Of a DNA stretch of 64,000 nt, positions 706 to 48,504 are shown in pieces. Made by a program: the position numbers and the translations under genes. The notes below the pieces were generated by a model, which ran no database searches, was not told the origin of the DNA, and saw only the letters and a program-made list of their open reading frames with translations. The DNA is from Patescibacteria group bacterium (GTDB lineage: Bacteria > Patescibacteriota > Patescibacteriia > Magasanikbacterales > UBA922). The stretch is taken from the NCBI GenBank assembly GCA_041658785.1, contig JBAZZL010000003.1, forward strand, positions 639 through 64,638, given 5' to 3'. Each line of letters starts with the position of its first letter. The first letter of the stretch is position 1.

Positions 706-854
706 GGTTTCTCCTCCTGTTTCCCACACTTCATGGCAAAAGCGCGGGAGTTGTTTTCTCATCCCGTCCCAACAACATCGTTGAGCCGGGAAGTTGAAGC
801 CCGAACCGTTAACCTCCAGTTTGACGGTTCGGGTAAAGGTGGCGCCGGCGCGCG

Positions 855-1274: not shown

Positions 1275-1487
1275 CGCCTCCTCCTTTCTAAAGTTGAAAG
1301 AACCACTCGCGCCGCCGAGCCCATCTCGGTTCGCGGATTTTTCCCCTGAAACTTTCGCTTCAGGGGCTTCCGGAAAATCAAAGTATTTTTGATTCTCTGG
1401 AAGATTTGAAATAATTTACGGAGTGATCCCGACTTAGTCGGGACCAGTTTGTCACGTGCTTCGTGTCGCGTAATCATGTCGCGTAAT

Positions 1488-1516
1488 TTGACGGCTAGTT
1501 TTTCCCCTGTTATACT
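1488..1516 (+). promoter_or_regulatory. sigma70-type promoter TTGACG-N17-TATACT with a TTTTCCCCTGT spacer box, ATG 8 nt downstream
   Basis: Consensus hexamers read directly. The same spacer box recurs at 3277, 6883 and 7590. Confidence 0.5.
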
Positions 1517-1524
1517 GGCAAGGT

Positions 1525-1740
1525 ATGACTACCAAACAATTAACTAAACAACTCAACCGGATCGGACAATTAGAAAAGGAACTACAATTGCTTAAAATCG
1601 TTGTTTTTAAAGCTCTGCCCAAACAAACCGGACGGACTTCTTCTGCTCACGCGGAAAGGACTCTGCTAAAAGCCGCGAAAGACGTCCGGAATGATCTTTG
1701 GCAATCACGCTATGCCAAAAAAGTTGCGCGTGTTTCTTGA
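1525..1740 (+). CDS. small putative antitoxin, partner of the PIN toxin
   Basis: 71 aa basic, helical ORF. It overlaps the downstream PIN gene by ~29 nt and sits behind a consensus promoter. Confidence 0.45.
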   Translation: MTTKQLTKQLNRIGQLEKELQLLKIVVFKALPKQTGRTSSAHAERTLLKAAKDVRNDLWQSRYAKKVARVS

Positions 1741-2146
1741 TACCAGCGCGATTTTAGCTGGGCTTAACTCGCCAAATGGAGCCGCCGGCATAATTCTGGC
1801 GGCTTGTTTTGTTCATGAAGCTATTCCGGTTATCTCCCCTCAAGTCGTTGAGGAGGCCGAACGGGTAATCGCTCAAAAATTTCCAAGGTTATTCGCCGGC
1901 TGGATCATTTTTTTGCTTATACCGCCGCAAATCGCTTCTCCACCTACTCTGGCTCAAGTAAGAAAGGCCTATCGTGTCCTGCCGACAAACGACGCGCCTA
2001 TTCTCGCCGCCGCTCTCAACACCCGCCCTGACGCTCTGGTAACTTGGAACACGCGCGACTTCATGCGTCCGGCAGTGGTGGAGGCATCGCCTTTTCCCAT
2101 TTTGCGGCCGGGTGAATTTCTGCGCCTGCTCCAACGCGGCAACTAA
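1712..2146 (+). CDS. PIN-domain ribonuclease (VapC-like toxin)
   Basis: Acidic PIN residues are present: VFLDTSAI, NDAPILAAAL, TWNTRDF. Typical toxin-antitoxin overlap with the upstream small ORF. Confidence 0.7.
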   Translation: MPKKLRVFLDTSAILAGLNSPNGAAGIILAACFVHEAIPVISPQVVEEAERVIAQKFPRLFAGWIIFLLIPPQIASPPTLAQVRKAYRVLPTNDAPILAAALNTRPDALVTWNTRDFMRPAVVEASPFPILRPGEFLRLLQRGN

Positions 2147-2492
2147 TCCCGCGGCAACCGGCAAAATAACAGACACTATCGGTATTTTTTGTTTTTTTGG
2201 AATGTAATGAACGTTGTCACCAGTCACAAGACACATGCCACGCATCATCCCTGCGATTTGTAAGCGCGGCTCACAGCTTACAACGCAAGCAAGCGCCGGT
2301 CATGGCGCTTGCGCTGGGCTCCGATTGAGCCGCGCAACCACCACGAAGGCGGCCAACGGAACCTCGCGAGAGTCCCCTTGACCGATGGTGGTTGCTTTGT
2401 TTAATTGTTTAATTGTTTAATTGTTACATTGTCAAATTGTTACATTGTTATTATGTTGTCGGTGTTGCAGTGTTGCAGCGCTGTCGTCTTAT

Positions 2493-3155
2493 TTACTTCA
2501 CCGTTACCCGTTTGTCCCAATATTCAACTGATTTTTTATACTCCTCGGGGTCAAGCGGCACGCCGCTGCCGCCGTATTCTTTGCCCAGAGCGTTACGGAG
2601 CATTGTTGTCGGATCAATCGGTTCTGCTTCCGGCGTGGGCAGGCCCATAATTTTCACAATCCCCCAATCGGCCGCGGGCACATCCGCCTCGCCGCTCGCT
2701 TCCGCTTCTTTTCGCAGTTGATCCTGGCGGTAAAGAACGATTCCCAAATAATTTGCCGCAGGCGTCTCCACTCCTTCGGCCCAGCGCGTCAAAACTGGCA
2801 GTTCATTTTCACGGCGCGCCTCAAAACCGTTCCGAATTTCCCCCCGATTTTCGTCCGTGATTTCCACGGAACCCACCCGCGCGTCGGTAAAATTTTCCAC
2901 AAAGAGCAGGCGGCAAAAATCGGCATATCCGGGCTTTACTGTTGCCCCGGCCAAGCGCGCCGCCAGCTCCTGTTCAAACTCTTCCGGCGTATGGCTGGAA
3001 ATTTTCGTGCCGGCAAAATCTTTTTTAAAATGCCGCTTGACGAATTCAGTCATGCCGGCGGACGAAATCGTCAACCCCTCTTTTTGCTCGGCGTCAGAAT
3101 GTTCCGCGTTCACGGACGGCCGCTCGCCGGTATTTTCGTTGGTCATAGGTGTCAT
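2493..3155 (-). CDS. hypothetical protein
   Basis: 220 aa ORF, acidic, balanced composition, no recognisable motif. It lies between repeat-rich intergenic regions. Confidence 0.45.
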   Translation of the reverse strand: MTPMTNENTGERPSVNAEHSDAEQKEGLTISSAGMTEFVKRHFKKDFAGTKISSHTPEEFEQELAARLAGATVKPGYADFCRLLFVENFTDARVGSVEITDENRGEIRNGFEARRENELPVLTRWAEGVETPAANYLGIVLYRQDQLRKEAEASGEADVPAADWGIVKIMGLPTPEAEPIDPTTMLRNALGKEYGGSGVPLDPEEYKKSVEYWDKRVTVK

Positions 3156-3276
3156 AGATAATGTGAGTTAAGAATAAATACGATAATTATATCATGTAAC
3201 GTGTAGCGTGTAACTTGTAACGTGGCGCACATTTTTAAAAATAGAATATCCACATTCCGCAACGGGAAAATGATAT

Positions 3277-3305
3277 TTGACAATCATTTTTCCCCCTGTT
3301 ATACT
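3277..3305 (+). promoter_or_regulatory. consensus promoter TTGACA-N17-TATACT (TTTTCCCCCTGT box) for paralog A, leaderless or near-leaderless
   Basis: Exact -35 and -10 hexamers. The ATG lies 9 nt after the -10. Confidence 0.55.
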
Positions 3306-3313
3306 CATTTTAT

Positions 3314-3595
3314 ATGAACCAAACATCAGACCCGACAATCAAAGACGTTATGGAGGTCGTTGAATTCATCCGTGACAATGCCGCGACTAAGGATGACGTC
3401 CAGGCAGTTAGAGCCGAGCTACAAAAAGAAATCCAAGACGCTAAAAATGAAACGATCGGCCATATTGATGGTTTTGTCAAACTGCACAAAGACATGGACA
3501 CTGAAATCGCCGCACTCAAATCATCTTACCAGCGGCACGAAGAGCAAATCAGCCAAATCGTCCGCCACCTCGGCCTCCAATTGTCTAATGGCTGA
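3314..3595 (+). CDS. small coiled-coil protein, paralog A of a DUF1640-like ATKDD(L/I) repeat family
   Basis: 93 aa. The N terminus MNQTSDPTIKDV and the C terminus SQIVRHLGLQLS are shared with the ORFs at 6921 and 7627. Identical promoter and start context. Confidence 0.7.
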   Translation: MNQTSDPTIKDVMEVVEFIRDNAATKDDVQAVRAELQKEIQDAKNETIGHIDGFVKLHKDMDTEIAALKSSYQRHEEQISQIVRHLGLQLSNG

Positions 3596-3612
3596 TCTGA
3601 TTTACCGCCAGT

Positions 3613-3640
3613 AATCCCGATGCTATCGGGTTTTTTGTTT
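3613..3640 (+). terminator. intrinsic terminator AATCCCGA-TGCTA-TCGGG followed by TTTTTTGTTTTTTG
   Basis: Hairpin followed by a T-run. A TGTAATGAAC tail motif is also seen after 2200 and 8070. Confidence 0.6.
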
Positions 3641-3695
3641 TTTGTAATGAACACAATTATTTTTTTCAATCGATAACTTTCGCAACGAACTTTGG

Positions 3696-3744
3696 GCGGT
3701 AACCCGCACCTCATCCCCTGCCCTTCTCCTAAAAGGAGAAGGGA
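3696..3744 (+). repeat. fragment (left half) of the MITE-like structured element
   Basis: CGGTAACCCGCACCTCATCCCCTGCCC...hairpin matches the copies at 31411 and 43958. Confidence 0.45.
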
Positions 3745-3839
3745 GCAATCCAACGATCTTTTGATTTTCCGATCTTTTGATCTTCAATCACCCCATCACC
3801 CCATCCTCCTCCACAATCCCTGAATTATCAGAAACTTTG

Positions 3840-4140
3840 GAAGGTGGCGAAGCGAGTGAAGCTTCGCCGCCAAGTGCGTCCAACGAGGGATTAGGAAATC
3901 CCGAATTGTTGGACTTCCCCGCCATGCAAATAGGCGGGGCGTTTGGTGGGAAGGCGGATCGGGAATTAGGTCGTCCGATCCGCCGCGTACTGCGGTGGCC
4001 CGCTTTTTGGGCTTTGGCCGGTACGCGCGGCCTGACGTCTCATCCTCTTACTGCTCCGTCGGAACGGAGCAGGGGACGTCCGCGATCGACGCGGCCCCAC
4101 CTGCCCCACCCTCGTAATGGGTGAAGATCAGGTGGCACCG
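3840..4140. repeat. GC-rich array of at least six perfect stem-loops; candidate structured RNA or a REP-like cluster
   Basis: Perfect stems at 3846-3868, 3887-3902, 3917-3939, 3953-3984 (10 bp), 4051-4072 (9 bp) and 4097-4136 (nested). Confidence 0.4.
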
Positions 4141-4440
4141 CCCATCCGCGGCGTCCCGAAAGAGAATGAGATCGTTCGGCCCGAAATCATCCACGAGGAC
4201 GACCTCGAACCGGCCCGATTCTCCGCCGGTCGTCTCACCGACCTCCACTGGCGGGCGATTTGCCAACCAGATGGCGCCGATGAGAACTGCCAACACCAGG
4301 CCAAAGAGAATGGCCCATATTGGCTCCCGGCGGAGAAGGGACAGAAGGGATCTCATCCCTTTGTCCTTTCCGCCAATCCTTATCGTGTTCCCGATTTTCA
4401 TCGGAACGGGACAAACCCGCCGGATTTCAGCAAGGGACAC
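4048..4440 (-). CDS. hypothetical small membrane protein; the start is uncertain, with M29 at 4356 as an alternative
   Basis: One clear TM helix (IWAILFGLVLAVLIGAIWLA). It is the most protein-like frame in a GC-rich block where the overlapping plus-strand ORFs look spurious. Confidence 0.3.
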   Translation of the reverse strand: MSLAEIRRVCPVPMKIGNTIRIGGKDKGMRSLLSLLRREPIWAILFGLVLAVLIGAIWLANRPPVEVGETTGGESGRFEVVLVDDFGPNDLILFRDAADGRCHLIFTHYEGGAGGAASIADVPCSVPTEQ

Positions 4441-5050
4441 CCTGCCTTATACCGGTTTTTTGGATTGGCGGATTCTCAAAGAGCGCGCTTCGCAAGCCCA
4501 GTATGGCTTTCGTTTCCTGGCACGCGCCAAGAAAACCTGCGAAGAAACACCTCTTCATTCACCCGACGCGCGATGCACGCATCACGACCCAAGTCCGCGT
4601 GTTTCGCATATCGTGTCAATGAAAAGGTGTTTGTTTTTTTATTTGAAAGAACGGAACACGAATCCTTCACACGAATTTACACAAATTATATTCGTGTGAA
4701 TTCGTGAAAAAATTCGTGTTTCCCCTTCAACCCTCAATCTTTTAATCAGCGCAATCAATGATTCAGAGTCCAAGGGGATAGATGAATGGCGTGTGCAGTG
4801 CTGTTCATCTCATCCCGAATGCGCAACTGATTCGGCAGTTGCCACCTACACGCGTAGATAACCCATCAGCGTGATCTGGGGGCAAGACAATTTATTTAAC
4901 GCCGTCTGCCGGGGCGCGCGGGTTCGCGTAGGTTAGCGTACCTACAGGAACCCGGTGGTGTACCTCACGGTGCACCTCCTTCTTGGGGTTAATCTACCTC
5001 TTGTTCCTCACTACCCCTTGAGTGAGGAGAGGTTGTCGCGGAATGCGACA

Positions 5051-5959
5051 CTACTTCGCGAACCGCCTGCATATCTCCAGCACCTGCTCGGGGATGAGCT
5101 TCGACTGGCTGCCGTCCGGGTTGCGCGGGCTACCGCCGACGGAGCTGGCGCCGCCCCAGTTCGCCGCGTGCGACTGTTCCGGGTTGACCTCGATCTCCTT
5201 CAGGGCGAGCTGCCCCAGGATCGTGTCCTTCCGGTAGTCGTCGAGCGACGTGGGCGGGCGCTTGGTGGCGCCGGGGCCGACCGCGAGCGGCACGAGGTCC
5301 GACCGCTTGGCGACGGTGTACATGAGCGTTCCGTTGGGCGCGTCCGTGAAGAGCACGCCCGCGAGGAAGCCCTGGTTGTACACGTCGTCGAAGCCGATCT
5401 TCGTCTCGACCGCCTGCCAGCAGGTCTTCGGCGACCACGCGTAGCCCTTCGACGGGCGCTCCAGACGCGCGGGCGGGGCCTGCCACTCGCCGTTGGCGTA
5501 CTGGGTCACCTTCACGAGGAAGGTTTCCAGCATAGCCACGGTCTGTGGCTCCTTGCTCCCGTAAGCCGGGGCCAGCTCGCGGTGGATGTCGTGCGGGGCG
5601 AAGATCGGGCCGTGCGCGTCGGTGAGGCCAACGCGCTCGACGAGCTCCTTCACCTTCTCCTCGTTCACGCGCTCCGGGTTGGCGAGCAACCAGACCGAGA
5701 GGCTCGTGTCCGCGTCCAGGTCGTTGATGTAGACCTGGGTGTCCTCGTCCACCACGAGCCCGAGGCGGATCGCCGTCGCCACCTGCTGGCACGTGGCCAG
5801 GGTGACGAGGCGGGTGCACGCCGCATGGTGATCAAACGAGAACTTGCGGTTCACGGCGTCGATCTGCGGGCCCTGGACGGCTCCGTCGAGCGCAATGCTG
5901 TTAGCGGGAAGGTTCGCGAAATCGACAACCTGACCGAACACGAAATTGATACGCGCCAT
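5051..5959 (-). CDS. hypothetical protein in a high-GC block
   Basis: ~302 aa starting at MARINFVFGQ with RBS GAGGAGGAAGAA. GC3-rich. The frames at 4955..6007(+) and 5130..5819(-) are shadows of it. Confidence 0.55.
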   Translation of the reverse strand: MARINFVFGQVVDFANLPANSIALDGAVQGPQIDAVNRKFSFDHHAACTRLVTLATCQQVATAIRLGLVVDEDTQVYINDLDADTSLSVWLLANPERVNEEKVKELVERVGLTDAHGPIFAPHDIHRELAPAYGSKEPQTVAMLETFLVKVTQYANGEWQAPPARLERPSKGYAWSPKTCWQAVETKIGFDDVYNQGFLAGVLFTDAPNGTLMYTVAKRSDLVPLAVGPGATKRPPTSLDDYRKDTILGQLALKEIEVNPEQSHAANWGGASSVGGSPRNPDGSQSKLIPEQVLEICRRFAK

Positions 5960-6479
5960 TTCTTCCTCCTCTCGGAGACTCCTGCGGACAAACCCACCCA
6001 TGGCTAGGTGGGAGGAGTGCCCTTGCGGGCTTGTTTCTGCTTGTCCGCTTAGCCATATCCCATCCCCCGCAAAAGCGAAGAAATTTTTCCCCACACCATG
6101 CGGGGAGGGATATTTTGGAAAAGGCATCTCGGGTCGGCTTCTGCCCCGAGTTACCTACCCTAAATCACTCAACACGATTTACACACTTCACAAAACATCT
6201 GCATTCGCATTTGTTTCGTGCTGTATGTCTCGTGCCTCGTGAAAAAAGGATTCGATCTGTCCGCCCTCTCGAGCGCCACGGAACTTCCCCGCGGTATTAC
6301 TGCCCAGAGCCAGACGACAATTCAGCTTGCGCCGAACTTCGCGAGGCATTTTTATTTTTACAACGTCATTGGTTGGACGTTGGTTTTATTAAATTTTATA
6401 GAACAAGAGCCTGTCTGCGGCTCTCGCGAAACTTTTTTCTCAAAAAATCTTGCGAGAACCCCGGAACACGAATTTTTCC

Positions 6480-6661: not shown

Positions 6662-6886
6662 ATGACTCACGCCCAGGCCGCAACGCTTACCAAACACGTT
6701 CAAACGTTGAATCGCGAAGTCGCTCTTTTGCGTTCTTTTATGATTGGCATGACGCATGATCCGGAAGGCGATTACCGTCCGTCGTTTGTCAAAACAATTC
6801 GCAAACGTACTATATCATCTGAATCGCGCCAGCGCTTTCTTGGAAAAGAGGCGTTCCTTGCCGAGCTCAAAAAGAGAGCAATTTGA
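6662..6886 (+). CDS. small hypothetical protein (74 aa)
   Basis: ORF with a leaderless-type promoter. Its stop codon TGA lies inside the -35 box of the paralog B promoter. Confidence 0.4.
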   Translation: MTHAQAATLTKHVQTLNREVALLRSFMIGMTHDPEGDYRPSFVKTIRKRTISSESRQRFLGKEAFLAELKKRAI

Positions 6887-6912
6887 CAAACCAATTTCAC
6901 GCCTGTTATACT
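6883..6912 (+). promoter_or_regulatory. promoter TTGACA-N18-TATACT for paralog B
   Basis: Same TATACTCATTTTATATG start context as at 3300. Confidence 0.5.
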
Positions 6913-6920
6913 CATTTTAT

Positions 6921-7277
6921 ATGAACCAAACATCGGACCCGACAATCAAAGATGTCATGGAGGTCGTAGAATTCATCCGCGATAATGCCGCGACCAAAGA
7001 CGATATTAAAAATTTCGCGACCAAAGATGATCTTAAGAACCTCGCGACCAAGGACGACTTAAAGAACTTCGCGACCAAAGACGATCTGCAAAACTTTGCC
7101 ACCAGGGACGATCTTAGAAATGCTAAAGATGAAATGATCGGCCATATTGATGGTTTCATTAAACTGCACAAGGACATGGACACTGAAATCGCCGCGCTCA
7201 AATCATCTTACCAGCGGCACGAAGATCAAATCAGCCAAATCGTCCGCCACCTCGGTCTCCAATTGTCTGCCGCCTAA
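6921..7277 (+). CDS. small coiled-coil protein, paralog B, with a 5x ATKDDLKNF tandem repeat expansion
   Basis: The N and C termini match paralog A. The repeats read ATKDDIKNFATKDDLKNLATKDDLKNFATKDDLQNFATRDDLRN. Confidence 0.7.
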   Translation: MNQTSDPTIKDVMEVVEFIRDNAATKDDIKNFATKDDLKNLATKDDLKNFATKDDLQNFATRDDLRNAKDEMIGHIDGFIKLHKDMDTEIAALKSSYQRHEDQISQIVRHLGLQLSAA

Positions 7278-7292
7278 GTCCGACAAACCCAT

Positions 7293-7478
7293 ATGGATAG
7301 AAACTCTGCCAAACCCACAATCGCTCCTCACGTCCCCTACCATCTTACGCCAGAAGGAATTGCGCTGACTCACCGAAAATTTGAGCTGGAAAAGCAAATG
7401 CTTTTGCGCGATTATGCTAAGCTGGAAAGAAAAATCAAGCAGATTGCGGACCATCTTGGTCTAAAGTTCAAGTCCTAA
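7293..7478 (+). CDS. degenerate C-terminal fragment of the same paralog family (61 aa)
   Basis: The C terminus KQIADHLGLKF resembles the SQIVRHLGLQL of paralogs A-C. Confidence 0.3.
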   Translation: MDRNSAKPTIAPHVPYHLTPEGIALTHRKFELEKQMLLRDYAKLERKIKQIADHLGLKFKS

Positions 7479-7589
7479 CTTTTCTAACACTTTGATTGAT
7501 AGAAAATACTTTTTTCACCACCGTTTCTATTGAACCGAAATTCAGCACAAACTGTGATGAAATTTTAACGGAAGAATAATATAATAATA

Positions 7590-7619
7590 TTGACAATCAA
7601 TTTTCCCCCTGTTATACTC
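7590..7619 (+). promoter_or_regulatory. promoter TTGACA-N18-TATACT for paralog C
   Basis: Near-identical to the 3277 cassette. Confidence 0.55.
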
Positions 7620-7626
7620 GTTTTAT

Positions 7627-8007
7627 ATGAACCAGACATCAGACCCGACAATCAAAGACGTACTGCAAGAGCTGAAAGAAAATAGAGAAATAATCGAGTT
7701 CATCCGCGACAACGCCGCGACCAAAGATGACATCGCCGACATCCGCAGAGAGATGGCGACCAAAGATGACATCGCCGACATCCGCAGAGAGATGGCGACC
7801 AAAGATGATTTGCGATTGGTGAAGACAGAACTGCGGCAGGAAATTCAGGATGCCAAAAATGAAATGCTTACTCATGTAGATGCTTTCGTGGGCTTGTACC
7901 AAAAACACGAACAAGAACTCGCCGCCGTAGTGGCTCGCGTCAATCGTTTTGAAGAAAAATTAAACGCCGTCATCAAACACCTCGGCCTCCAGCTTGAGAC
8001 CGCGTAA
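7627..8007 (+). CDS. small coiled-coil protein, paralog C, with the repeat ATKDDIADIRREM in three copies (the third partial)
   Basis: 126 aa. Conserved MNQTSDPTIKDV...IKHLGLQL termini with a different repeat array. Confidence 0.7.
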   Translation: MNQTSDPTIKDVLQELKENREIIEFIRDNAATKDDIADIRREMATKDDIADIRREMATKDDLRLVKTELRQEIQDAKNEMLTHVDAFVGLYQKHEQELAAVVARVNRFEEKLNAVIKHLGLQLETA

Positions 8008-23308: not shown

Positions 23309-23641
23309 TTACAAAATCCTTATTCCGGTCTGTCTGATTTCATCAATCAACATGCTTCCCTCCTGAAAGTCTCTGGGGTGATAGCCGACCGGTTCAATAA
23401 CCGGTTGGTGGGGATCGCGGATCGGAGCCAAATAATTCCAAAGGTAACGTTTTGCTTTCCACGGATTATTAAATTTTGGCGAAACAATACAAACATCAAT
23501 GTCGCTCCATTTGTTCGCGTTTCCTTTGGCAAAAGAGCCAAAAATATACACCGACCTGATCGGTAATTTTTCTTCTCGAAGCCGGCCGACAAATTCTTCT
23601 ACTTCTTTTTTTATTTTTTTTGGTACTGTCTTTTTAGCCAT
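23309..23641 (-). CDS. minimal nucleotidyltransferase (MNT) antitoxin
   Basis: GSFAKGNANKWSDIDV motif (GSx10DxD). Confidence 0.8.
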   Translation of the reverse strand: MAKKTVPKKIKKEVEEFVGRLREEKLPIRSVYIFGSFAKGNANKWSDIDVCIVSPKFNNPWKAKRYLWNYLAPIRDPHQPVIEPVGYHPRDFQEGSMLIDEIRQTGIRIL

Positions 23642-24021
23642 AAATTATACGAGCGGCAAATTTTAAGCCACTTATTAGCATAGCTTTCCGTGCACCGCTT
23701 ATAAAAAGCGTATTTTTCATCTTCGTATCTTCCCGCGATATTGAAATCGGTAATCTCCCGAAAATCTCTCGTTTGTTTTTGGTTTAGCGCCAAATCCGCC
23801 AATGCCGCCAGTCGCGCCAAATCGTGAATGCGCGGCGGTAATTCTTTCGTCTTCAAAACCACGAGCCCCTTTAACAACTTTTCGATCGTGAGGTGAGCAA
23901 AAAATAAAGAGTCGCTATAGCGCCTGCCCTTGAAAAGATACAGCGCCGTATCCCAATTCCGGCTGGCAGAAAGGCGCCAATAGGAAATCTGTTTGCTAAT
24001 TTTCTGTGACGAAAGCTGCAT
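23611..24021 (-). CDS. HEPN-domain protein (toxin partner of the MNT)
   Basis: 136 aa helical ORF with an R-x-x-HD motif (PRIHDL). It overlaps the MNT gene by ~30 nt. Confidence 0.7.
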   Translation of the reverse strand: MQLSSQKISKQISYWRLSASRNWDTALYLFKGRRYSDSLFFAHLTIEKLLKGLVVLKTKELPPRIHDLARLAALADLALNQKQTRDFREITDFNIAGRYEDEKYAFYKRCTESYANKWLKICRSYNLWLKRQYQKK

Positions 24022-24079: not shown

Positions 24080-25222
24080 TCACGCCGATACATGAAAATA
24101 ACACACATCCCCATCCTTCACCTCATACTCTTTCCCCACCAACTGCAACACTCCTTTCTCCTTCGCGCCGGCCCAGCCGCCGCACGCGACAAAATCCGGC
24201 CACGGCACAACGTCGGCTTTGATATAACCCTTGATAAAATCCGTATGAATCACGCCCGCGGCCCCCGGCCCCTTGGTTCCCCATTTAACCGTCCACGCCC
24301 GCGTCTCCGGCTCGCCGGAAGTGAAGTAAGTAACTAAATCCAACAATTTATAACCGGCGACAATTATCTTATCCAACCCAGACTGCTCCAGCCCGCTCGC
24401 TTTCAGATACTCCCTCGCCTCCGCCGCCGTCAAATCCGCCAACTCCGCTTCCAACTTCGCCGAGATATTCACACCCACTTCGCTGTCTGTCAAAAAATTA
24501 GTTTCCTGCTTGTTTTCCCGCCAAAGCCCCGTAGCGAACGGGGTCCCGCTTCGTTGCGATGACGGGACCCCGCTCGCTGCGGGGCCAGTTTCTTCGCAGT
24601 TAAAAACATACATCATCGGCTTCATCGTCAAAAGATGCAAGTCCTTTATTGTCAGCGCTTCCTCATCGGTGTAATCCAACGAACGCGCCGACTTGCCCGA
24701 TTCCAAATGCGTGTTCAGTTTTTCCAACAATTCAATCTCCGCTTTGGTCTGTTTGTCAACGAGCCCCTTGGCCTTTTTTTTGGTATTCGCAAGGCGATTT
24801 TCCACTGTCTGCCAATCGGCCAAAACTAACTCCAAGTTGATCACTTCCGCGTCTTCTTTGGGATCAACTTTATTATGAACGTGCATCACGTTAGCATCTT
24901 CAAACGCACGCACGACTTGAACAATCGCGTCCACTTCTCTGATGTGCGAAAGAAATTTGTTGCCCAGCCCCTCGCCTTCCGAAGCGCCTTTGACTAAGCC
25001 GGCGATGTCAACAAATTTAATTGCCGTAGGGATTATTTTTTTTGATTTTGAAACATCGGCCAGTTTTTGCAGGCGTTCATCAGGAACTTCAACAATACCA
25101 ATGTTCGGTTCAATGGTGCAAAAAGGATAATTTTGCGCGTCGGCCTGCTTGCTGCGGGTGAGGGCGTTAAACAGGGTTGACTTGCCGACATTGGGGAGAC
25201 CGACGATTCCGAGGGAGAGCAT
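24080..25222 (-). CDS. ychF: ribosome-binding ATPase YchF
   Basis: G1 GLPNVGKST, a coiled-coil domain and the C-terminal TGS domain ([14 protein letters not shown]...GDV). Confidence 0.85.
24527..24587. repeat. GC-rich 61-bp imperfect palindrome (23-nt arms, 2 mismatches) embedded in-frame in ychF
   Basis: GCCCCGTAGCGAACGGGGTCCCG / CGGGACCCCGCTCGCTGCGGGGC. It encodes ...[20 protein letters not shown]... Confidence 0.6.
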
Positions 25223-25452
25223 ATCATGATGCACGATACACGTATCACGAGTCATACACGAATTGTCCAACTGATTTGTGATGTGTTTCTAGTGACTTGT
25301 GGCGTAGTTTGTGATGAGGACGCCATTATTATGAAGAAATGGGGATTAAAAGTCAACCGCGGGTGTCATTTTGTAAATATCATCTCGATTTATTTGAAAA
25401 ACTTTGACTCTCTCTTTCTTTTTAATTATAATTGAAGACGAAGGAGGTGCAC

Positions 25453-25545
25453 ATGTTTTGGAGACAGCTATCTTTCAATTTGGGAATAGTGCTCGCCCTT
25501 TCGTTGCTGGGAATCCTACTCGGCATGCTGATCGACAAGTGCTGA
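25453..25545 (+). CDS. 30-aa hydrophobic small ORF (MFWRQLSFNLGIVLALSLLGILLGMLIDKC)
   Basis: Strong SD AAGGAGGT 5 nt upstream. Single TM helix. Confidence 0.35.
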   Translation: MFWRQLSFNLGIVLALSLLGILLGMLIDKC

Positions 25546-25559
25546 TGTCCCCACCAGGC

Positions 25560-25850
25560 CAAAGGAGGTTCCCCACAAACCACCCGACGCCTGCCCCAAT
25601 TCTGAAACAGATTCAGGGTTGAGGTAGGAGTTTCGCCGGGTGGTTTTGTTGTTGGAGGCGGGGTTTGGGCGGTAATCCGACAACCCTACCTCTGTCTCCT
25701 TCCCTTATGAAAGGAAGGAGAACCTTTTAAGAAAGTTCAACTAAATTCAATTGTTAGCCCCTTTCCATTCATAAGGGAAAGGGGTTGGGGATAGGGTTGT
25801 CGCCAAACACCCACGCACCACATTGACTTTCCCCCCAAAATCAATTATCC
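25560..25850 (+). ncRNA. GC-rich structured non-coding region upstream of tig (candidate ncRNA or cis-regulatory RNA)
   Basis: Long-range stem GAGGTAGG...CCCTACCTC. Two hairpins, CTCCTTCCC-TTATGAAA-GGAAGGAG and CCCCTTTCC-ATTCATAA-GGGAAAGGGG, whose loops are reverse complements of each other. Confidence 0.3.
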
Positions 25851-25924
25851 TATAACAACATTATCCGCATCAATTCGCGTTCGCAACTCATAAACCCTTC
25901 ACCCTTAAACCCATAAATTCAATT

Positions 25925-27211
25925 ATGCAATATTCATCCAAAAAATTAGAAAAATCCCAAATAGAAATCACCATCACCGTCACTCCTGAAGAATGCCGTC
26001 CGCACCTGGAAAAGGCGGCCCAGAGAATTTCCGTGCGGACCGCGATTAAGGGTTTCCGGCCAGGGAAAGCGCCGTATGATATTGTCAAACGCGAGGCCGG
26101 CGAGATGGCGATTTTGCAAGAAGCGCTGGAGTCAATTATTCAAAAAACTTTCTTCCATGCGGCAATAACCGAGGAAAAACTAGAGACTATCGGCATGCCG
26201 AAGATTGACGTTGACAAAATAGCGCCGGGCAATGATCTCGTTTACCGAGCTGTTGTCGCCGTTTTGCCGCTTGTTAATTTGCCTGATCTCAAAAAAATCA
26301 AAGTGGAAAAAAAAGAAGCCAAAATTGATGCTAAAAAAGTTGAAGAAACCCTTGACGCCCTTCGCGGCATGCGCGCCAAAGAGGTGATAAAACAAGGTCC
26401 TGCCCAAGGAACGGACAAACTGACGATTGATATGGACATGTTGATTGATAATGTGCCGGTGGAAGGCGGCCAAGCAAAGAATTACCATGTTTACCTTGGA
26501 GAAAGTCATTACATTCCGGGATTCAACGAGCAAGTGAAAGGGATGAAAGAAGGAGAGGAAAGAGAATTTCAACTGGATTTTCCTGTTACTCATTACCAAA
26601 AACACCTAGCCGGCAGAAGAGTTAATTTTAAAGTAAAAGCCAAGGGCGTTTACGAGCGCCAGTTGCCAGAACTTGATGAAGAGTTTGCCAAAACGTTCGG
26701 TCAGGAGAACGTGGAAAAATTGCGCGCGCTGGTTAATAACAATCTTTTGCAAGAAGCCGAACAGAAAATCAAGCAACAAACCGAGATTGATATTTTGGAA
26801 CAGCTTATCGCGAATACTGAATTCGGCGATCTGCCGGAAGTCTTGATTGATTCCGAGCGGCAAAAAATGTTTTACGAACTCAAGCGCGATCTGGAGCGAA
26901 ACGGAGTTTCTATTGAACAATATTTGCAAGACATTAAAAAAGGAGAAAAAGAACTGTTTGAAGATTTCAAAAATCAAGCCGAAAAACGCGCCAAGGCCGC
27001 GCTGATTTCCCGCCAAGTCGCGAAAGAGCAAAATATTATTGTTTCAGACGAAGAATTAGATAAAGAAGTCGAGCTTATCCGGCAGGCCTATGCCAATGAT
27101 AAAGATACGCGAGAAAATTTGAAAAAACCTAAAGTGAGAGAATCTCTCGCGGTGACGGTGCAGAATCGGAAGATAATGGAGTATTTACGAGCGGCCATAT
27201 TGTCGTCCTGA
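25925..27211 (+). CDS. tig: trigger factor
   Basis: N-terminal ribosome-binding domain (GFRPGKAP), PPIase and C-terminal domains. Confidence 0.9.
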   Translation: MQYSSKKLEKSQIEITITVTPEECRPHLEKAAQRISVRTAIKGFRPGKAPYDIVKREAGEMAILQEALESIIQKTFFHAAITEEKLETIGMPKIDVDKIAPGNDLVYRAVVAVLPLVNLPDLKKIKVEKKEAKIDAKKVEETLDALRGMRAKEVIKQGPAQGTDKLTIDMDMLIDNVPVEGGQAKNYHVYLGESHYIPGFNEQVKGMKEGEEREFQLDFPVTHYQKHLAGRRVNFKVKAKGVYERQLPELDEEFAKTFGQENVEKLRALVNNNLLQEAEQKIKQQTEIDILEQLIANTEFGDLPEVLIDSERQKMFYELKRDLERNGVSIEQYLQDIKKGEKELFEDFKNQAEKRAKAALISRQVAKEQNIIVSDEELDKEVELIRQAYANDKDTRENLKKPKVRESLAVTVQNRKIMEYLRAAILSS

Positions 27212-31391: not shown

Positions 31392-31410
31392 AGTGCTTAT
31401 GAAAATTAAC

Positions 31411-31683
31411 CTAATTTCTAATACTTTGAATTACGAAACGTAGATTTTCATCATTCCCATTTAAAGGACTCTTCGCAGTGTGAATCGGTCTTCGCGGTAA
31501 TCCGCACCTCATCCCCCTGCCCCTTCTCCTTGAAGGAGAAGGGGGGTTGCCAATTGTCCATCTGGCTTCCCCTCTCCTTTTAGGAGAGTGGCTAGGGGTG
31601 AGGTGCGGGTTACCGCGAAGAGTTTTCGGAACGGTGAGTGACAGTTGTGTGCCGTTTCGTAATTCAAAGTAATTAGAAATTAG
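31411..31683. mobile_element. MITE-like structured repeat element, full copy with ~30-bp terminal inverted repeats
   Basis: TIR CTAATTTCTAATACTTTGAATTACGAAACG at 31411-31440 pairs with CGTTTCGTAATTCAAAGTAATTAGAAATTAG at 31653-31683. A ~150-nt core carries the long stem CTTCGCGGTAAYCCGCACCTCATCCCCC...GGGGTGAGGTGCGGGTTACCGCGAAG and two internal hairpins. A near-identical core lies at 43958. Confidence 0.55.
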
Positions 31684-32030
31684 GTCAATTAGGTTAATTT
31701 AAAACTTCTACATGCAAGAATTATCCTCTGTATACTAAATACCCCACATAAACCGCGTACATCATCACAAACATCACCCCCTGCCAGCGGTCTAATTTGT
31801 GTTAAGAAAATAAAACAGACCTTATTATAGTCCGGTTAGAGGAGAAAGACAAGTTTTTGAGGCAGATTAATTTATGTAATCTAGAATTTACGCGTTTGAA
31901 ATCTGATTCACTTTTTAGGTAAAAGGAGTAACAGACGACCCAAAGGGAGTCTGTCCAACGACCGAATTGAACGCACTCCCCACGGGTCGTGCGTTACTCC
32001 AATTTATAATGAAACGCGTAAGTTCTGTAA

Positions 32031-35516: not shown

Positions 35517-35520
35517 AGAA

Positions 35521-35612
35521 GTTGTAAGTTGTAAGTTGTAAGTTGTAAGTTGTAAGTTGTAAGTTGTAAGTTGTAAGTTGTAAGTTGTAAGTTGTAAGTT
35601 GTAAAGTTGCGA
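35521..35612. repeat. (TTGTAAG)n tandem heptamer array, ~12 units
   Basis: Read directly. It is the inverted counterpart of 35974-36018. Confidence 0.9.
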
Positions 35613-35613
35613 G

Positions 35614-35973
35614 TTACTTTTGAACCTTCATCCAACCGTATAGCAGGCGGCCGCATTCTTCCAGATTTTTAAATAGGCCATCATATTCTTTGAGAGACAT
35701 GTAATCTAGGTCTTTTGCCAATAGCAAATGATATTTTAATTCTTCCAGCGACGCAAGGGCGATGTTATAAAATCGCAATGAATCACCTACACACTTTCTT
35801 TTGAAACCTTCCGCAATATTTGCTGGAAATGAAATGGCTGCGCGGCACGATTGGTCAACCAATCTAAACCTTTCATCAGAAGGATATTTTTTTGTAACCA
35901 GGTATACTTTTAGGACCATCGCGTGTCCTTTTTGCCAAGCCAATATTTCTTTAAATGTTCTTATCCCTGCCAT
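35614..35973 (-). CDS. four-helix-bundle protein (23S rRNA intervening-sequence protein family)
   Basis: 119 aa. ...ISFPANIAEGFKR... is typical of PF05635. Confidence 0.7.
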   Translation of the reverse strand: MAGIRTFKEILAWQKGHAMVLKVYLVTKKYPSDERFRLVDQSCRAAISFPANIAEGFKRKCVGDSLRFYNIALASLEELKYHLLLAKDLDYMSLKEYDGLFKNLEECGRLLYGWMKVQK

Positions 35974-36018
35974 AAGCTTACAACTTTACAACTTACAACT
36001 TTACAACTTACAACCCAC
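35974..36018. repeat. (CTTACAA / CTTTACAA)n array, reverse complement of the 35521 array
   Basis: Read directly; together the two arrays are long inverted arms around the 4HB gene. Confidence 0.85.
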
Positions 36019-47130: not shown

Positions 47131-48504
47131 TTATACTGACGTTTCTTGTTGATAAGATGTGGCGATCAGCAAAGCGGGTAAGAGCCAAAATAATATTGCC
47201 AAATCATTTTTTATATATGGACTGTCAACTAAGCCAGTAACAACAATCGCGGTCATACTCGCGAGTAAAAAGATTGAAAGATTAAAAGATTGAAAGCTTG
47301 ACGTATTATCTTTAATCTTACAATCTTTTAATCTTTTAATCTTTAATACCCCAATTATTCCAGTTTTGAAGAACCAGACCATTATTAACAGAAAACCCAC
47401 AAGTCCGGTTAAACCCAAACCCACCCACATCGTTAAGAAAATATTATGCGGATGATGAAAGATTTCAATGCCCTCGCCGTTGACCGCAGTGTGATAGGGA
47501 ATGATTTTTTCTTTATAAGACGCCAGACCGGCGCCGAAGATTGGGTTGTCTTTTAGAAATTGCCAGGTTTCCTGATAAATAGAGAGGCGGATTTGGCCGG
47601 AGCGGTCTTGGAGAGTTAATTCTTTTTTGATGGGATTGTAAGCGGGGAGAAGGGCAAGGGTAAGGAGGCCGGAAGCCAGAAGGATGATGGTGATTAGCCG
47701 CGTTTTTTTATAAAAAAATAATAAGAGCGCGATTCCCGCGGCGAGGCCGGCGAGGCCGCCGGTGGATTTGGCGAAAATAATTGCCAGTGGTGATGAAATT
47801 AGAAATAAGAAACTAGAAACTAGGGTCAGCCAGTTTCCAGTTTCCAGTTTCCAGTTTCTTTTTTTCAACCTCTGAAAAGATTGGATTAGCAAATATAACG
47901 CAATCGGCACAATCGGCGCAAGAAACAATCCTACCGCATTCGGAAATCCATACCACCCAGTAACGCGGAAGGCGTTGCCGTTTTCCCAAAATGCGTAAGG
48001 AACCATGAAACCCGTGAAATGTTGATAGATGGCGAGAAGCGAAGTTGCCAGTCCGGATAGAATGAGAGCAAATAGGATTAAAGATTGAAGATTGAAGATT
48101 AAAGATTTTGTGGTTGATTGTTGATTGTTGATGGTGGTAATTAGGATAATGAAGATTAGAAACGGTTCAATGTAAAACGCTTTCCATTCCCCAGCCGCCG
48201 CTCGGACGTCAACCGAAGTGAATATTGAAGCGGTGGCGGCTACCAGGAAAATGAATGACCCGATGAATAAAATTTTATGTCGTAAAATCTGAAATCTGAA
48301 ATTTGAAATCTGAAATCTTTTGACAATCCAAACGGCGATGATAATCCAAATCATCGCTTCCAGCAGTGTCGTCGGCAACGGTCCAATATTGAAGCGGATT
48401 AAATATGTCGGCAATAGGAGAAATAAAAAAAACAGGCTGAGGCGGAAACGCAACCACGTGATTAAAACGAAGAATAATGAGTAAAGAATAATGAGTAGCG
48501 GCAT
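47131..48504 (-). CDS. O-antigen ligase / polymerase family membrane protein (Wzy_C domain)
   Basis: >10 TM helices; periplasmic loop with ...IFGAGLASY. The gene contains four 7-8-bp tandem-repeat tracts. Confidence 0.65.
   Translation of the reverse strand: MPLLIILYSLFFVLITWLRFRLSLFFLFLLLPTYLIRFNIGPLPTTLLEAMIWIIIAVWIVKRFQISNFRFQILRHKILFIGSFIFLVAATASIFTSVDVRAAAGEWKAFYIEPFLIFIILITTINNQQSTTKSLIFNLQSLILFALILSGLATSLLAIYQHFTGFMVPYAFWENGNAFRVTGWYGFPNAVGLFLAPIVPIALYLLIQSFQRLKKRNWKLETGNWLTLVSSFLFLISSPLAIIFAKSTGGLAGLAAGIALLLFFYKKTRLITIILLASGLLTLALLPAYNPIKKELTLQDRSGQIRLSIYQETWQFLKDNPIFGAGLASYKEKIIPYHTAVNGEGIEIFHHPHNIFLTMWVGLGLTGLVGFLLIMVWFFKTGIIGVLKIKRLKDCKIKDNTSSFQSFNLSIFLLASMTAIVVTGLVDSPYIKNDLAILFWLLPALLIATSYQQETSV

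Follow-up and report, generated by a model that had tools for sequence, protein, structure and literature searches.

A palindromic pair of potential triplex motifs lies between a predicted small-ORF unit and the tig promoter of a Patescibacterium

What occupies the intergenic region upstream of tig, the trigger factor gene of this Patescibacterium, a Magasanikbacteria-like MAG: a regulatory RNA, a toxin locus, a membrane microprotein or something else? The initial annotation had described a 30-aa hydrophobic ORF with a Shine–Dalgarno (SD) motif, followed by about 300 nt of GC-rich sequence in which a long closing stem and two hairpins with mutually complementary loops were recognized. We examined the region within the window, by which we mean the whole 64-kb stretch of DNA analysed. 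All elements that had been described are present, but they belong to separate parts rather than to one regulatory RNA upstream of tig. Positions 25404–25860 probably comprise three adjacent and independent parts: a transcription unit, a DNA palindrome and the tig promoter (Table 1). The transcription, termination, translation and triplex formation that we assign to these parts are predictions from sequence.

Table 1 Features of the tig-upstream region and related repeats in the window
Feature	Position	Strand	Remarks
Promoter-like site, sigma-70-type, TTGACT-17-TATAAT	25404–25432	+	11/12 matches, consensus scan; near-consensus; predicted activity
SD-like motif AAGGAGGT	25441–25448	+	4 nt upstream of ATG
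30-aa hydrophobic small ORF (sORF), peptide MFWRQLSFNLGIVLALSLLGILLGMLIDKC	25453–25545 (ATG to stop)	+	Orphan
Second AAGGAGGT	25562–25569	+	Lacks a following start codon; no conservation in L002, L003, L044
Long interrupted hairpin and U-tract	25577–25655	+	RNA fold, covariance model R1, four-genome comparison
Palindromic element, inverted pair of intrastrand triplex motifs	25678–25802	.	125 nt; weaker extension to ~25660–25815
Left triplex unit TCTCCTTCCTTT-CAT-AAGGGAAGGAGA-C-AGAGGTAGGGTT	25682–25721	-	11/12 Watson–Crick pairs, 12/12 mirror triads, permutation p ~0.001
Right triplex unit CCCCTTTCCATT-CAT-AAGGGAAAGGGG-TT-GGGGATAGGGTT	25758–25798	+	11/12 Watson–Crick pairs, 12/12 mirror triads, permutation p ~0.002
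Canonical G-quadruplex (G4) motif GGGAAAGGGGTTGGGGATAGGG	25775–25796	+	Inside right unit
tig promoter TTGACT-17-TATCCT	25823–25851	+	9/12 matches, consensus scan; downstream of hairpin and palindrome
tig, trigger factor, 428 aa	25925–27211	+	Pfam Trigger_N, FKBP_C, Trigger_C; no SD
Partial family member, one triplex unit 3708–3744 and shared flank TTTGGGCGGTAACCCG	3679–3745	-	Intergenic
Full family member, units 31506–31545 (-) and 31569–31604 (+)	31489–31621	.	DNA fold z = -12; intergenic between two minus-strand genes
Full family member, units 44038–44077 (-) and 44101–44135 (+)	44016–44157	.	DNA fold z = -14; intergenic

The 331-nt stretch folds as RNA better than its shuffles on both strands (z = -4.2 on the plus strand and -6.7 on the minus strand). 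It contains two separate structures, a hairpin at 25577–25655, which the initial annotation had not singled out, and a palindrome at 25678–25802. The description as GC-rich suits the first half (GC 0.574, 25546–25700) and not the second (0.419, 25701–25860); the stretch has an overall GC of 0.495, compared to 0.45 for the window. An origin of the GC-rich island as foreign DNA was rejected, since the rise in GC is mild and base composition varies greatly along the window. In an independent ENA assembly (L001) the intergenic region is identical except for one difference, at 25365. A consensus scan of the region returned four promoter sites, where 1.1 are expected from shuffles. Self-BLAST of the intergenic region within the window found no second copy by sequence, and BLAST against 79–190 loci showed that, among relatives, only the tig promoter is conserved. 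Rfam provided no family for the proposed structured RNA: at gathering thresholds the whole window yielded two tRNAs only and nothing at the tig-upstream region, and at E <= 10 positions 25100–26100 gave noise from miRNA-precursor models, far below the gathering score and on both strands, which is the signature of a generic long hairpin.

The sORF and its SD are present as first described. Transcription is predicted to start at ~25439–25440, and the promoter together with the strong SD would drive a 30-codon hydrophobic ORF whose unit would be ended by an intrinsic terminator on the plus strand. Such an SD is exceptional here: an SD-like motif precedes only 1 of the 49 long ORFs of the window and is missing from the other 48, and AAGGAGGT occurs five times on the two strands of the 64 kb, two of these occurrences lying 121 nt apart at this locus. 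The best 19-residue Kyte–Doolittle window of the peptide averages 2.44, and the peptide may be a microprotein that spans the membrane once. A search of 1.84 billion representative proteins gave no homologue, the exact peptide sequence is not on record, searches against Pfam, NCBIfam and PADLOC gave no match, and tblastn on 190 loci recovered the same genome only. The membrane microprotein put forward in the initial annotation is viable: the ORF, of predicted translation, sits in a complete minimal unit of promoter, SD, ATG and terminator hairpin, and this layout recurs in the slot upstream of tig in L002, L003 and L044. Most likely the sORF encodes a small accessory membrane protein that evolves fast and whose translation and function are putative.

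Type I toxins such as TisB, Ibs and Fst are small and hydrophobic, and the same sequence properties raise the question of whether the 30-aa peptide is a membrane toxin, with the downstream structured region encoding or binding an antisense RNA. Its size and hydrophobicity fit, as do the strong promoter and SD, and the ORF in this slot is hypervariable among relatives. Like TisB, Ibs, ShoB and Fst, the sORF has ~30 codons, one predicted transmembrane helix, its own promoter and a strong ribosome-binding site; unlike them, it is without homology, a detectable antisense partner or a long structured 5′ leader. The only minus-strand promoter-like sites lie at 25356->25328, on the ychF side, and at 25873->25844, so that none covers or adjoins the ORF; between 25356 and 25844 the consensus scan, which could miss a weak promoter, found none. 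The 5′ leader of the sORF transcript would be only ~14 nt long, and a fold that sequesters the SD is not significant (z = -1.4). No toxin family is matched, and the slot ORFs of relatives are 84–139 aa long, the one in L002 reading as non-hydrophobic. The type I toxin-like locus that had been suggested thus gained no positive support, and we regard it as very unlikely.

The hairpin downstream of the sORF lies 31 nt past the stop codon. It consists of a basal stem AAACCACCCG/CGGGUGGUUU, a middle stem CCUGCC/GGUAGG and an apical stem of 10 bp, followed by UUUUGUUGUU, and its predicted RNA fold has an energy of -42.6 kcal/mol (z = -3.9). The ~26 pairs at 25577–25646 are preceded by an A-rich stretch and followed directly by UUUUGUUGUU. 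These are the sequence hallmarks of an intrinsic terminator, with a G+C-rich CCACCCG/CGGGUGG stem and a U-tract located after a stop codon on the coding strand. A consensus terminator scan missed the hairpin because its stem is interrupted.

Covariance model R1 of this hairpin matched three further loci, L003 (80.5 bits), L002 (72.1) and L044 (48.9), and nothing else in 84 sources. Over the four copies, pairing holds in 93% of cells, and in 8 pairs both sides have changed in a compensatory way; slid controls reach 36–60% pairing and at most one such pair. The plus strand scores 101 bits versus 30 for the minus strand. The base CCACCC/GGGUGG is invariant and the U-tract is kept in all four copies. 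In L002 an insertion of ~130–145 nt is tolerated in the apical loop, which fits a terminator, as only the basal stem and the U-tract are needed. In L003 a new promoter and gene follow the hairpin, indicating that it separates transcription units. We therefore interpret 25577–25655 as the putative intrinsic terminator of the sORF unit. Judged by the refuting outcome named in the initial annotation, a lack of conservation in homologous tig-upstream regions, the sORF and the kissing stems fail, as they are not conserved in relatives, and this hairpin passes, as it is kept in four genomes.

The G+C-rich basal stem and UUUUGUUGUU are shared with Rho-independent terminators, and the same form is found at the hppA terminators of L004, L194 and L044. 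In contrast to ordinary terminators, the hairpin is much longer (~26 pairs, ~-40 kcal/mol) and its sequence is conserved between genomes with only 57–79% Tig identity. Conservation of the 5′ arm at this distance exceeds what a plain terminator needs, and the hairpin may have a second role. A fuzzy regular expression applied to 73 metagenomic tig loci found only L002 and L003, L044 being added later by the covariance model. An exact-pattern scan of 185,579 species genomes for the 5′ arm gave 109 matches, about the number estimated for chance, and none has a proper 3′ arm. The single match with GGGTGGTT downstream, in Pseudomonas (L141), has it ~170 nt off in unrelated sequence; the one match in Patescibacteria (L139) is apparently inside a long ORF read as purA. 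In viral contigs the pattern produced four chance matches only.

The same slot in the three related genomes contains a promoter, an SD-led ORF and the hairpin, and the ORF differs each time. The slot ORFs of L002, L003 and L044 have strong SDs and, as read from sequence, analogous promoters upstream. Homology searches showed the sORF to be an orphan, as are the slot ORFs in L002 and L044. We considered whether the sORF is a decayed copy of the 118-aa ORF of L044 and rejected this, as the weak hydrophobic similarity in tblastn has E = 0.14 in a tiny database.

Such diversity could also mean that the sORF is untranslated, in which case ~25439–25655 would specify a small non-coding RNA of ~215 nt, with the 3′ hairpin as its conserved part and the SD-like motifs serving another purpose. 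The slot ORFs are indeed unrelated orphans of very different lengths, the L002 slot region has long ORFs on both strands, SDs are hardly used in this genome, the second AAGGAGGT has no ORF after it and conservation is confined to the 3′ hairpin. However, in all four genomes the promoter is followed by an SD and a properly spaced ATG despite the differing sequences, a recurrence that is hard to explain without selection for translation, and the body of the transcript lacks significant structure (z = -1.4). A non-coding RNA consequently appears rather unlikely.

The slot just upstream of the tig promoter is common to four Magasanikbacteria-like genomes. All of them retain the position of the promoter, the SD and the terminator hairpin, and each has a different orphan ORF. 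A bolder proposal, which we consider quite improbable, is that Magasanikbacteria-like CPR bacteria conserve the slot as a ‘hypervariable microprotein cassette’ in which the hairpin is more than a terminator; a weaker variant treats the triplex pair described below as a promoter-proximal insulator. If the cassette proposal was true, the ORF would be replaced or rewritten in each genome within a frame of fixed promoter position, exceptional SD and conserved 3′ hairpin, and the hairpin could be, for instance, a site of recombination or processing, or it could serve as the handle of a peptide system, either toxin/antitoxin-like or for host interaction. In a lineage so poor in SDs, this one slot regularly carries orphan ORFs that are led by an SD and followed by a conserved hairpin, and it is a cheap target for checks of microprotein expression in CPR bacteria.

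The second part of the region is the palindrome. As initially described, it contains two hairpins, at 25695–25721 (TCTCCTTCC CTTATGAAA GGAAGGAGA) and 25758–25784 (CCCCTTTCC ATTCATAAG GGAAAGGGG), enclosed by a long closing stem of 25678–25692 with 25788–25802, and the heptaloop cores UUAUGAA and UUCAUAA are exact reverse complements. These features could be interpreted as a single structured cis-regulatory RNA, either a tig leader or riboswitch or an sRNA, whose hairpins kiss or switch to a long extended hairpin and thereby control tig. The better-than-shuffled fold, the perfect loop complementarity and the location upstream of tig are in line with this. Several observations argue against it. 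None of the closest tig-upstream regions (L002, L003, L004, L193 and L194) has the hairpins or the closing stem, and in L002 and L003 no palindrome lies between the hairpin and the tig promoter. The two hairpins sit between the terminator-like hairpin and the conserved tig promoter. Folded as DNA, the palindrome has the same energy on the two strands (-30.4 and -30.2 kcal/mol, z = -5.7 on both). It is a member of a dispersed repeat, and the copies at 31489 and 44016 lack loop complementarity, their loops being GA/TTGAAG and TTT. No Rfam family matches. Finally, an RNA hairpin model leaves unexplained a mirror third strand, a property of DNA triplexes. The kissing-loop reading has thereby been largely refuted, and we consider it extremely improbable.

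The mirror third strand places the palindrome in the class of the TM_ECO, PIT (potential intrastrand triplex) and BoxC repeats of E. coli (Hoyne et al. 2000; Holder et al. 2015, PMC4666352). Each half combines a pyrimidine stem with its purine complement and with a mirror purine/T stem able to lie in the major groove, forming G·G:C, A·A:T and T·A:T triads. The halves are inverted, with their third strands outside, where they form the ‘closing stem’; either single strand would therefore be drawn as a closing stem and two hairpins with complementary loops. The loop complementarity arises because two similar units lie in inverted orientation. At three positions the left unit differs from the right one in all three strands, and the triad is kept each time.

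In the published definition (ITxF, PMC4666352), a pyrimidine stem (C) is combined with a Watson–Crick purine stem and an antiparallel third stem that pairs G-G, A-A or T-A, with stems of 6–15 nt, at most one mismatch and loops of 1–6 nt. The units at 25682–25721 (-) and 25758–25798 (+) belong to its purine class, having stems of 12 nt, loops of 3 and 1–2 nt, one Watson–Crick mismatch and no triad mismatch, and the window contains five more units. Our custom triplex finder was validated on four published TM_ECO motifs of E. coli, all recovered within 1–2 nt of their published positions, among them the lldD-trmL pair, whose ‘minus then plus’ layout matches that of the palindrome. In the window it detected seven units with stems of at least 10 nt, compared to none in 100 dinucleotide-preserving shuffles, and per-unit permutation p values range from 0.001 to 0.008. 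Cognate purine and mirror stems match at 8.4 of 9 positions, versus 5.5 of 9 for non-cognate stems. The covariation of the three strands is sufficiently clear to suggest selection on the mirror third strand, a point relevant to the debated function of such repeats. The label ‘triplex’ denotes a sequence potential only.

The family was recognized through the inverted-repeat list and the shared architecture. All four of its loci in the window are intergenic and three are inverted pairs. The copies at 25678, 3679, 31489 and 44016 have TTTGGGCGGTAAYCCG and the architecture in common; those at 44016 and 31489 are 92% identical over 213 nt, and the 25678 copy is related to these two by the architecture and the 16-nt flank only, not by BLAST. 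The same motif class was found in other Magasanikbacteria-like tig loci (L033, L034/35, L043 and L051) and in other phyla (L130, L151 and L161). A literature search returned nothing linking these triplex-type repeats to Patescibacteria. Repeats studied so far mainly in Enterobacteria and Cyanobacteria also occur in small Patescibacteria genomes, at ~3.5 elements per 64 kb here.

Are these copies a mobile element? A MITE-like element would have the closing stems as its terminal inverted repeats, and its mirror symmetry would either be incidental or help a transposase to recognize it. Within the 64 kb, inverted termini and multiple copies are present: the copies are dispersed, two are 92% identical over 213 nt, presence varies between relatives and another inverted repeat, of 38 nt (31404–31440 with 31653–31690), flanks the 31489 copy. 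By inspection, however, the boundaries of the 31422–31634 and 43956–44165 copies show no target-site duplication, nor does 25678/25802, and terminal inverted repeats do not predict three-strand covariation in unrelated variants and phyla. TM_ECO was also not found associated with mobile elements in E. coli (PMC4666352). REP/BIME and MITE-type repeats (Correia elements, RUP, BOX) resemble the family as short, dispersed, intergenic, non-coding imperfect palindromes that either strand can fold into and that some relatives have and others lack; they differ in that no target-site duplication, RAYT or transposase was noticed here and that a mirror third strand is not a REP or MITE feature. We find mobility unlikely, and it concerns the spread of the repeat, so that it is compatible with our assignment of the palindrome to the triplex class. 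An integron attC site was considered for the palindromes and the hairpin and dropped, as the R″/R′ core sites RYYYAAC/GTTRRRY are absent by inspection.

Similarities to TM_ECO/PIT/BoxC extend to the order of a pyrimidine stem, a 3-nt loop, a purine stem, a 1–3-nt loop and a mirror purine/T stem, to the G·G:C, A·A:T and T·A:T triads, and to stems of 10–12 nt with at most one mismatch. Both sets are strictly intergenic and multi-copy with frequent inverted pairs, and the lldD-trmL pair runs ‘minus then plus’ with a spacer. Closest in sequence is the window unit at 44101, CCCTCTCCT-TTT-AGGAGAGGG-CTAG-GGGTGAGGT, in which the terminal C:G·G triad is replaced by T:A·T. The strict pattern CCCTCNCCC-N3-6-GGGNGAGGG-N3-GGGNGAGGG nevertheless has no match in the window, even with three substitutions; as published, the TM_ECO/BoxC family pattern allows one mismatch, and the only exact match was in a member of the Dehalococcoidia (L130). 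The units at 25682 and 25758 differ from TM_ECO in being more A/T-rich (AAGGGAAAGGGG) and longer, with 12 triads. Third strands lie outside in all three full elements here and inside in most E. coli pairs; they also lie inside in all pairs seen at other loci. The host, a Patescibacterium, differs as well.

A G4/hairpin/duplex switch has been proposed for the E. coli TM/BoxC sequences (bioRxiv 10.1101/032615), and the G-rich arm could act in this way here, given the canonical G4 motif at 25775–25796. Four runs of at least three G, and with them a canonical motif, occur in only one of the seven window units, so the feature conserved in the family is not G4. The mirror triad relation is conserved across the units, in contrast to the G-run pattern. 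Such a switch is highly improbable. As a triplex-class repeat, the palindrome would act, if at all, at the DNA level, as a repeat prone to non-B DNA in the form of a hairpin or cruciform, a transient triplex or, in one half, a G4, and not as an RNA switch.

The E. coli MG1655 motifs are always intergenic and often in inverted pairs, form triplexes in vitro as single strands, have shown no promoter or terminator activity and mark loci that are more variable than usual; neither duplex DNA nor in vivo work in E. coli revealed stable triplexes (PMC4666352). By analogy to TM_ECO/BoxC, the consequence of the palindrome is likely local instability, in the form of insertion, deletion or rearrangement, rather than gene regulation. 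The tempting ‘kissing-loop riboregulator upstream of tig’ becomes a strand-symmetric DNA repeat of the BoxC/PIT/TM class beside an ordinary terminator and promoter.

The third part, the tig promoter, is the only segment of the intergenic region that BLAST retrieved in relatives, at 87.5% over 40 nt in L002 and 89% over 37 nt in L003, and its TTGAC(T/A)TTT box is readable in L004, L193, L194, L033 and L044. The best named matches of Tig are from Patescibacteria and Magasanikbacteria. Transcription of tig would start from 25823–25851, independently of the sORF unit and the palindrome. A SecM/MifM-type leader or arrest peptide for tig was rejected, because tig has its own conserved promoter downstream and a whole extra gene intervenes in L003. 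In two independent lineages, the window and L033, a triplex-motif pair lies 16–20 nt upstream of the tig -35 box, a position that could hint at a promoter-proximal role.

The 702-nt gap between ychF and tig contains a small-ORF unit, a terminator-like hairpin and a palindrome (25678-25802). An independent second assembly of this organism has an identical gap save one base at 25365, outside all features discussed here. The source is a Patescibacteria MAG: its trigger factor matches an NCBI 'Patescibacteria group bacterium' protein at 100% identity, the next best named matches being Candidatus Magasanikbacteria. The closest-relative tig loci were collected by exact-protein look-up (L002, L003 and L193 with 79%, 74% and 72% Tig identity; further loci L004-6 with 71%, L194 with 66% and L195-7 with 64%), and a metagenome scan provided 73 more, mostly at 55-63% identity and some as low as 33%. 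The upstream neighbour of tig differs between loci: ychF in the window, hppA in L002-6, L194 and L044, a tRNA in L193 and a LysM peptidase in L195. The tig promoter box is also readable in L004, L193, L194, L033 and L044. As the one piece of the gap that BLAST finds conserved is this box, tig has its own promoter, downstream of all the features described here. Just downstream of ychF, the minus strand (23309-24021) has overlapping genes for a nucleotidyltransferase (110 aa) and a HEPN protein (136 aa), which together make up a typical toxin-antitoxin-like pair.

Features of the ychF-tig gap, the dispersed repeat family and comparison loci
Feature	Position	Strand	Comment
ychF	ends ~25222-25255	minus	5' border of gap
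Promoter-like TTGACT-17-TATAAT	25404-25432	plus	11/12 to consensus
Second AAGGAGGT	25562-25569	plus	121 nt past the first, 8 nt before terminator hairpin; no start codon after
Terminator-like hairpin	25577-25655	plus	
Left unit of palindrome		minus	TCTCCTTCCTTT-CAT-AAGGGAAGGAGA-C-AGAGGTAGGGTT
Right unit of palindrome		plus	CCCCTTTCCATT-CAT-AAGGGAAAGGGG-TT-GGGGATAGGGTT
tig promoter TTGACTTT-N-TATCCTATAAC	25823-25860	plus	sole conserved piece of gap by BLAST
tig	25925-27211	plus	3' border of gap
Family element, same architecture	31489-31621		intergenic; inverted-repeat scan
Family element, same architecture	44016-44157		intergenic; inverted-repeat scan
Half copy	3679-3745		intergenic; inverted-repeat scan
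L002 insert palindrome GTCATCCTGAACCCCCA...TGGGGACTCAGGATGAC	L002 2686-2813		128 nt, in apical loop of hairpin
L033 inverted triplex-motif pair	L033 1126-1257		independent, different sequence; ends 16 nt before tig -35 box

The initial annotation described the ~300 nt after the small ORF as a GC-rich structured RNA with two hairpins whose complementary heptaloops would allow kissing. The hairpins exist (25695-25721 and 25758-25784, within a closing stem of 25678-25692 and 25788-25802), the loop core of one, UUAUGAA, is the exact reverse complement of the other, UUCAUAA, and the 331 nt past the ORF fold better than dinucleotide shuffles (z = -4.2 on the plus strand, -6.7 on the minus strand). 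Contrary to that description, the stretch comprises two unrelated structures, and GC richness holds for its first half (0.574) but not its second (0.419; window 0.45). An Rfam scan returned only two tRNAs in the whole window at gathering thresholds. The region matched no known RNA family; at E <= 10 both strands matched miRNA-precursor models only, with scores far under the threshold, as any long inverted repeat would. Nor are the kissing hairpins conserved: the palindrome is absent from L002 and L003, and in L002 the tig promoter follows ~40 nt past the terminator-like hairpin.

The palindrome belongs instead to a dispersed family with a shared layout, in which a closing stem encloses a polypyrimidine/polypurine hairpin, a spacer and a second hairpin. 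The elements at 31489 and 44016 are 92% identical over 213 nt, and the palindrome has the flank TTTGGGCGGTAAYCCG in common with the family copies. Weak BLAST matches of family elements in two unrelated loci (L051 and L130) revealed the form CCCTCACCCTAACCCTCTCCC-loop-GGGAGAGGG, and a full-text search with that string led to Holder et al. 2015 (PMC4666352), in which the E. coli BoxC/PIT/TM_ECO repeats are described as potential intrastrand triplex motifs. We built a custom finder on the published definition: a pyrimidine stem is followed by its purine complement and then by a mirror stem (G-G, A-A or T-A pairing), with a loop after each of the first two stems and no more than one mismatch apiece. 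In the window it found seven units with stems of 10-12, exactly at the four family loci, plus one weak 8-nt match; no unit with a stem of at least 10 appeared in 100 dinucleotide shuffles of the window, and those with a stem of at least 8 numbered 0.03 per shuffle. Both units of the palindrome form 12/12 triads, a score that third-stem permutation reaches in ~0.1-0.2% of trials. From one of these units to the other, three positions change in every stem at once, with the triad kept. In a set of 22 units taken from the window and other loci, purine stems agree with their cognate mirror stems at 8.4/9 positions, versus 5.5/9 for non-cognate stems. As a positive control, the finder recovered TM_ECO 1, 2, 17 and 18 of E. 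coli MG1655 within 1-2 nt of their published positions. The TM_ECO 17+18 pair (lldD-trmL) has the order minus unit, spacer, plus unit, as do the window elements, whereas the strict TM_ECO sequence pattern occurs nowhere in the window. The window elements belong to the structural class and not to the enterobacterial sequence family.

This architecture rationalizes the apparent RNA fold. An inverted pair with third strands outside is necessarily drawn, on either strand, as a closing stem around two hairpins; the closing stem is one third strand against the complementary third strand. As each unit, read in its own direction, has the loop TT-CAT-AA, either strand shows the two loops as reverse complements of each other. 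Kissing is not a family property, since the loops of the 31489 and 44016 copies are not complementary. DNA folding energies are near equal on the two strands (-30.4 and -30.2 kcal/mol). A canonical G4 motif (25775-25796) is present in one unit and missing from the other six. The repeats may have spread by a MITE-like mechanism: the 31489 copy is bracketed by a further 38-nt inverted repeat (31404-31440 and 31653-31690, 95% identical), giving a 287-nt nested composite of MITE-like form, although no target-site duplications were seen. Part of its left arm (GAATTACGAAACG) flanks the 44016 copy too.

Other Magasanikbacteria-like tig loci also have inverted pairs of triplex motifs, upstream of tig in L033 and on its downstream side in L043, L051 and L034/35. 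Further afield, such pairs occur in L151 (alphaproteobacterial), in L161 and in a Dehalococcoidia. Third strands lie inside in these other loci, in contrast to the window elements, where they lie outside. The pair is 20 nt from the tig -35 box in the window, versus 16 nt in L033; such placement in two lineages may be due to chance, long spacers being few in compact genomes. In E. coli, the isolated strand forms a triplex in vitro, but no stable triplex was found in duplex DNA or in vivo, and the motifs showed no promoter or terminator activity and no link to gene function, but raised locus variability (PMC4666352). The presence of the palindrome in the window and its absence from L002 and L003 fit the insertion/deletion behaviour described for the E. 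coli motifs. We propose that 25678-25802 is a DNA-level repeat prone to non-B structures, which by analogy would have no dedicated role in tig expression. Thus the observation of paired hairpins is real, but its interpretation as a structured cis-regulatory RNA is unsupported: they represent a known class of triplex-type intergenic repeats, with the tig promoter downstream. What is new is the phylum, the orientation being less common; our literature search found no paper linking these motifs with Patescibacteria.

The first of the two structures is of a different nature. Reading the loci revealed a hairpin, AAACCACCCGACGCCUGCC...GGUAGG...CGGGUGGUUUUGUU, common to the window, L002 and L003. A covariance model of these three copies, searched in 84 sources (490 kb in total), added a fourth in L044 (48.9 bits, E ~3e-10) and nothing else convincing. 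With only four copies and an alignment fitted to the model, 93% of pair cells are standard and 8/26 pairs change on both sides; slid-register controls gave 36-60% paired and at most one double-changed pair. The basal stem CCACCC/GGGUGG and the U-tract after it are invariant. G-U pairs lie on the plus strand, which scores 101 bits versus 30 for the minus strand. The L002 copy carries an unrelated palindromic insert of ~130-145 nt in its apical loop, with basal stem and U-tract intact, and in L003 a new promoter, SD and 78-aa ORF follow the hairpin. The invariant base and U-tract, the plus-strand bias, the tolerated insert and the new downstream unit all fit an intrinsic terminator of a plus-strand unit. 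Exact-pattern scans of the 5' arm gave chance matches only (one genome each, 185,579 species; IMG/VR); the element is restricted to this lineage and is no widespread RNA. The hairpin is the only conserved RNA-level element of the region. When reverse-complemented, the left arm of the palindrome (25681-25692, GAGGTAGGGTTG) is similar to the hairpin's 3' side (25616-25630, GGGTTGAGGTAGGAG), perhaps by coincidence; TGAGGTAGGAG is retained in the L002 hairpin as well.

Each of the four genomes has, ahead of the hairpin, an ORF ~28-57 nt upstream that comes with a strong SD and a promoter-like site. In the window, the 30-aa ORF (ATG 25453 to stop 25545) and its SD, AAGGAGGT at 25441-25448, were identified correctly by the initial annotation, which missed the promoter-like site; the start predicted from this site lies just before the SD. 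The octamer has only five copies on both strands of the 64-kb window. The genome is nearly devoid of Shine-Dalgarno motifs, making that of the slot ORF remarkable: GGAG, GAGG or AGGA within 20 nt upstream of the first ATG precedes 1 of 49 long ORFs (>=150 aa) in the window, and tig and ychF have none. The lengths of the ORFs in this slot are 30 aa for the window, 84 aa for L003 (39 aa if read in a different frame), 139 aa for L002 and 118 aa for L044, with no relation among the four and no match in databases. That SD and ATG recur although the coding sequence is unconserved argues that something is translated in the slot. The complete lack of sequence conservation precludes confirming that the 30-aa peptide is a functional product; a microprotein is a possibility, with conservation that is positional rather than of sequence. 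A type I toxin had also been suggested, but the peptide matches no toxin, defence or other family, a consensus scan found no antisense promoter near the ORF, and the ~14-nt leader has no significant SD-sequestering fold.

The window contains further repeats. At 59650-60104, a ~390-bp array of 7-nt repeats (GGAAATT/GGAAACT) is followed by the complementary repeat as a block in inverted orientation (60052-60104), and a related 29-nt piece lies at 47830-47858. A 14-nt unit repeated in tandem, together with an inverted copy ~400 nt downstream, occupies 35519-35615 and 35977-36014. Adjoining a gene start is a 92-nt palindrome without spacer (39231-39322; 46-nt arms, 83% complementary) with TTCGTT/AACGAA-like repeats. 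A hairpin at 46383-46474 (36-nt arms, 92% complementary) contains the palindrome GCGCATTGCAATGCGC twice, and a similar GATGCATTGCATTGG lies just ahead of the L002 tig promoter. GC content is strongly raised in a block at positions 1-6100 (as high as 0.75 over 150 nt, mean of the window 0.45), part of which (3269-3586) has duplicates just downstream, at 6881-7661, with 88-94% identity.
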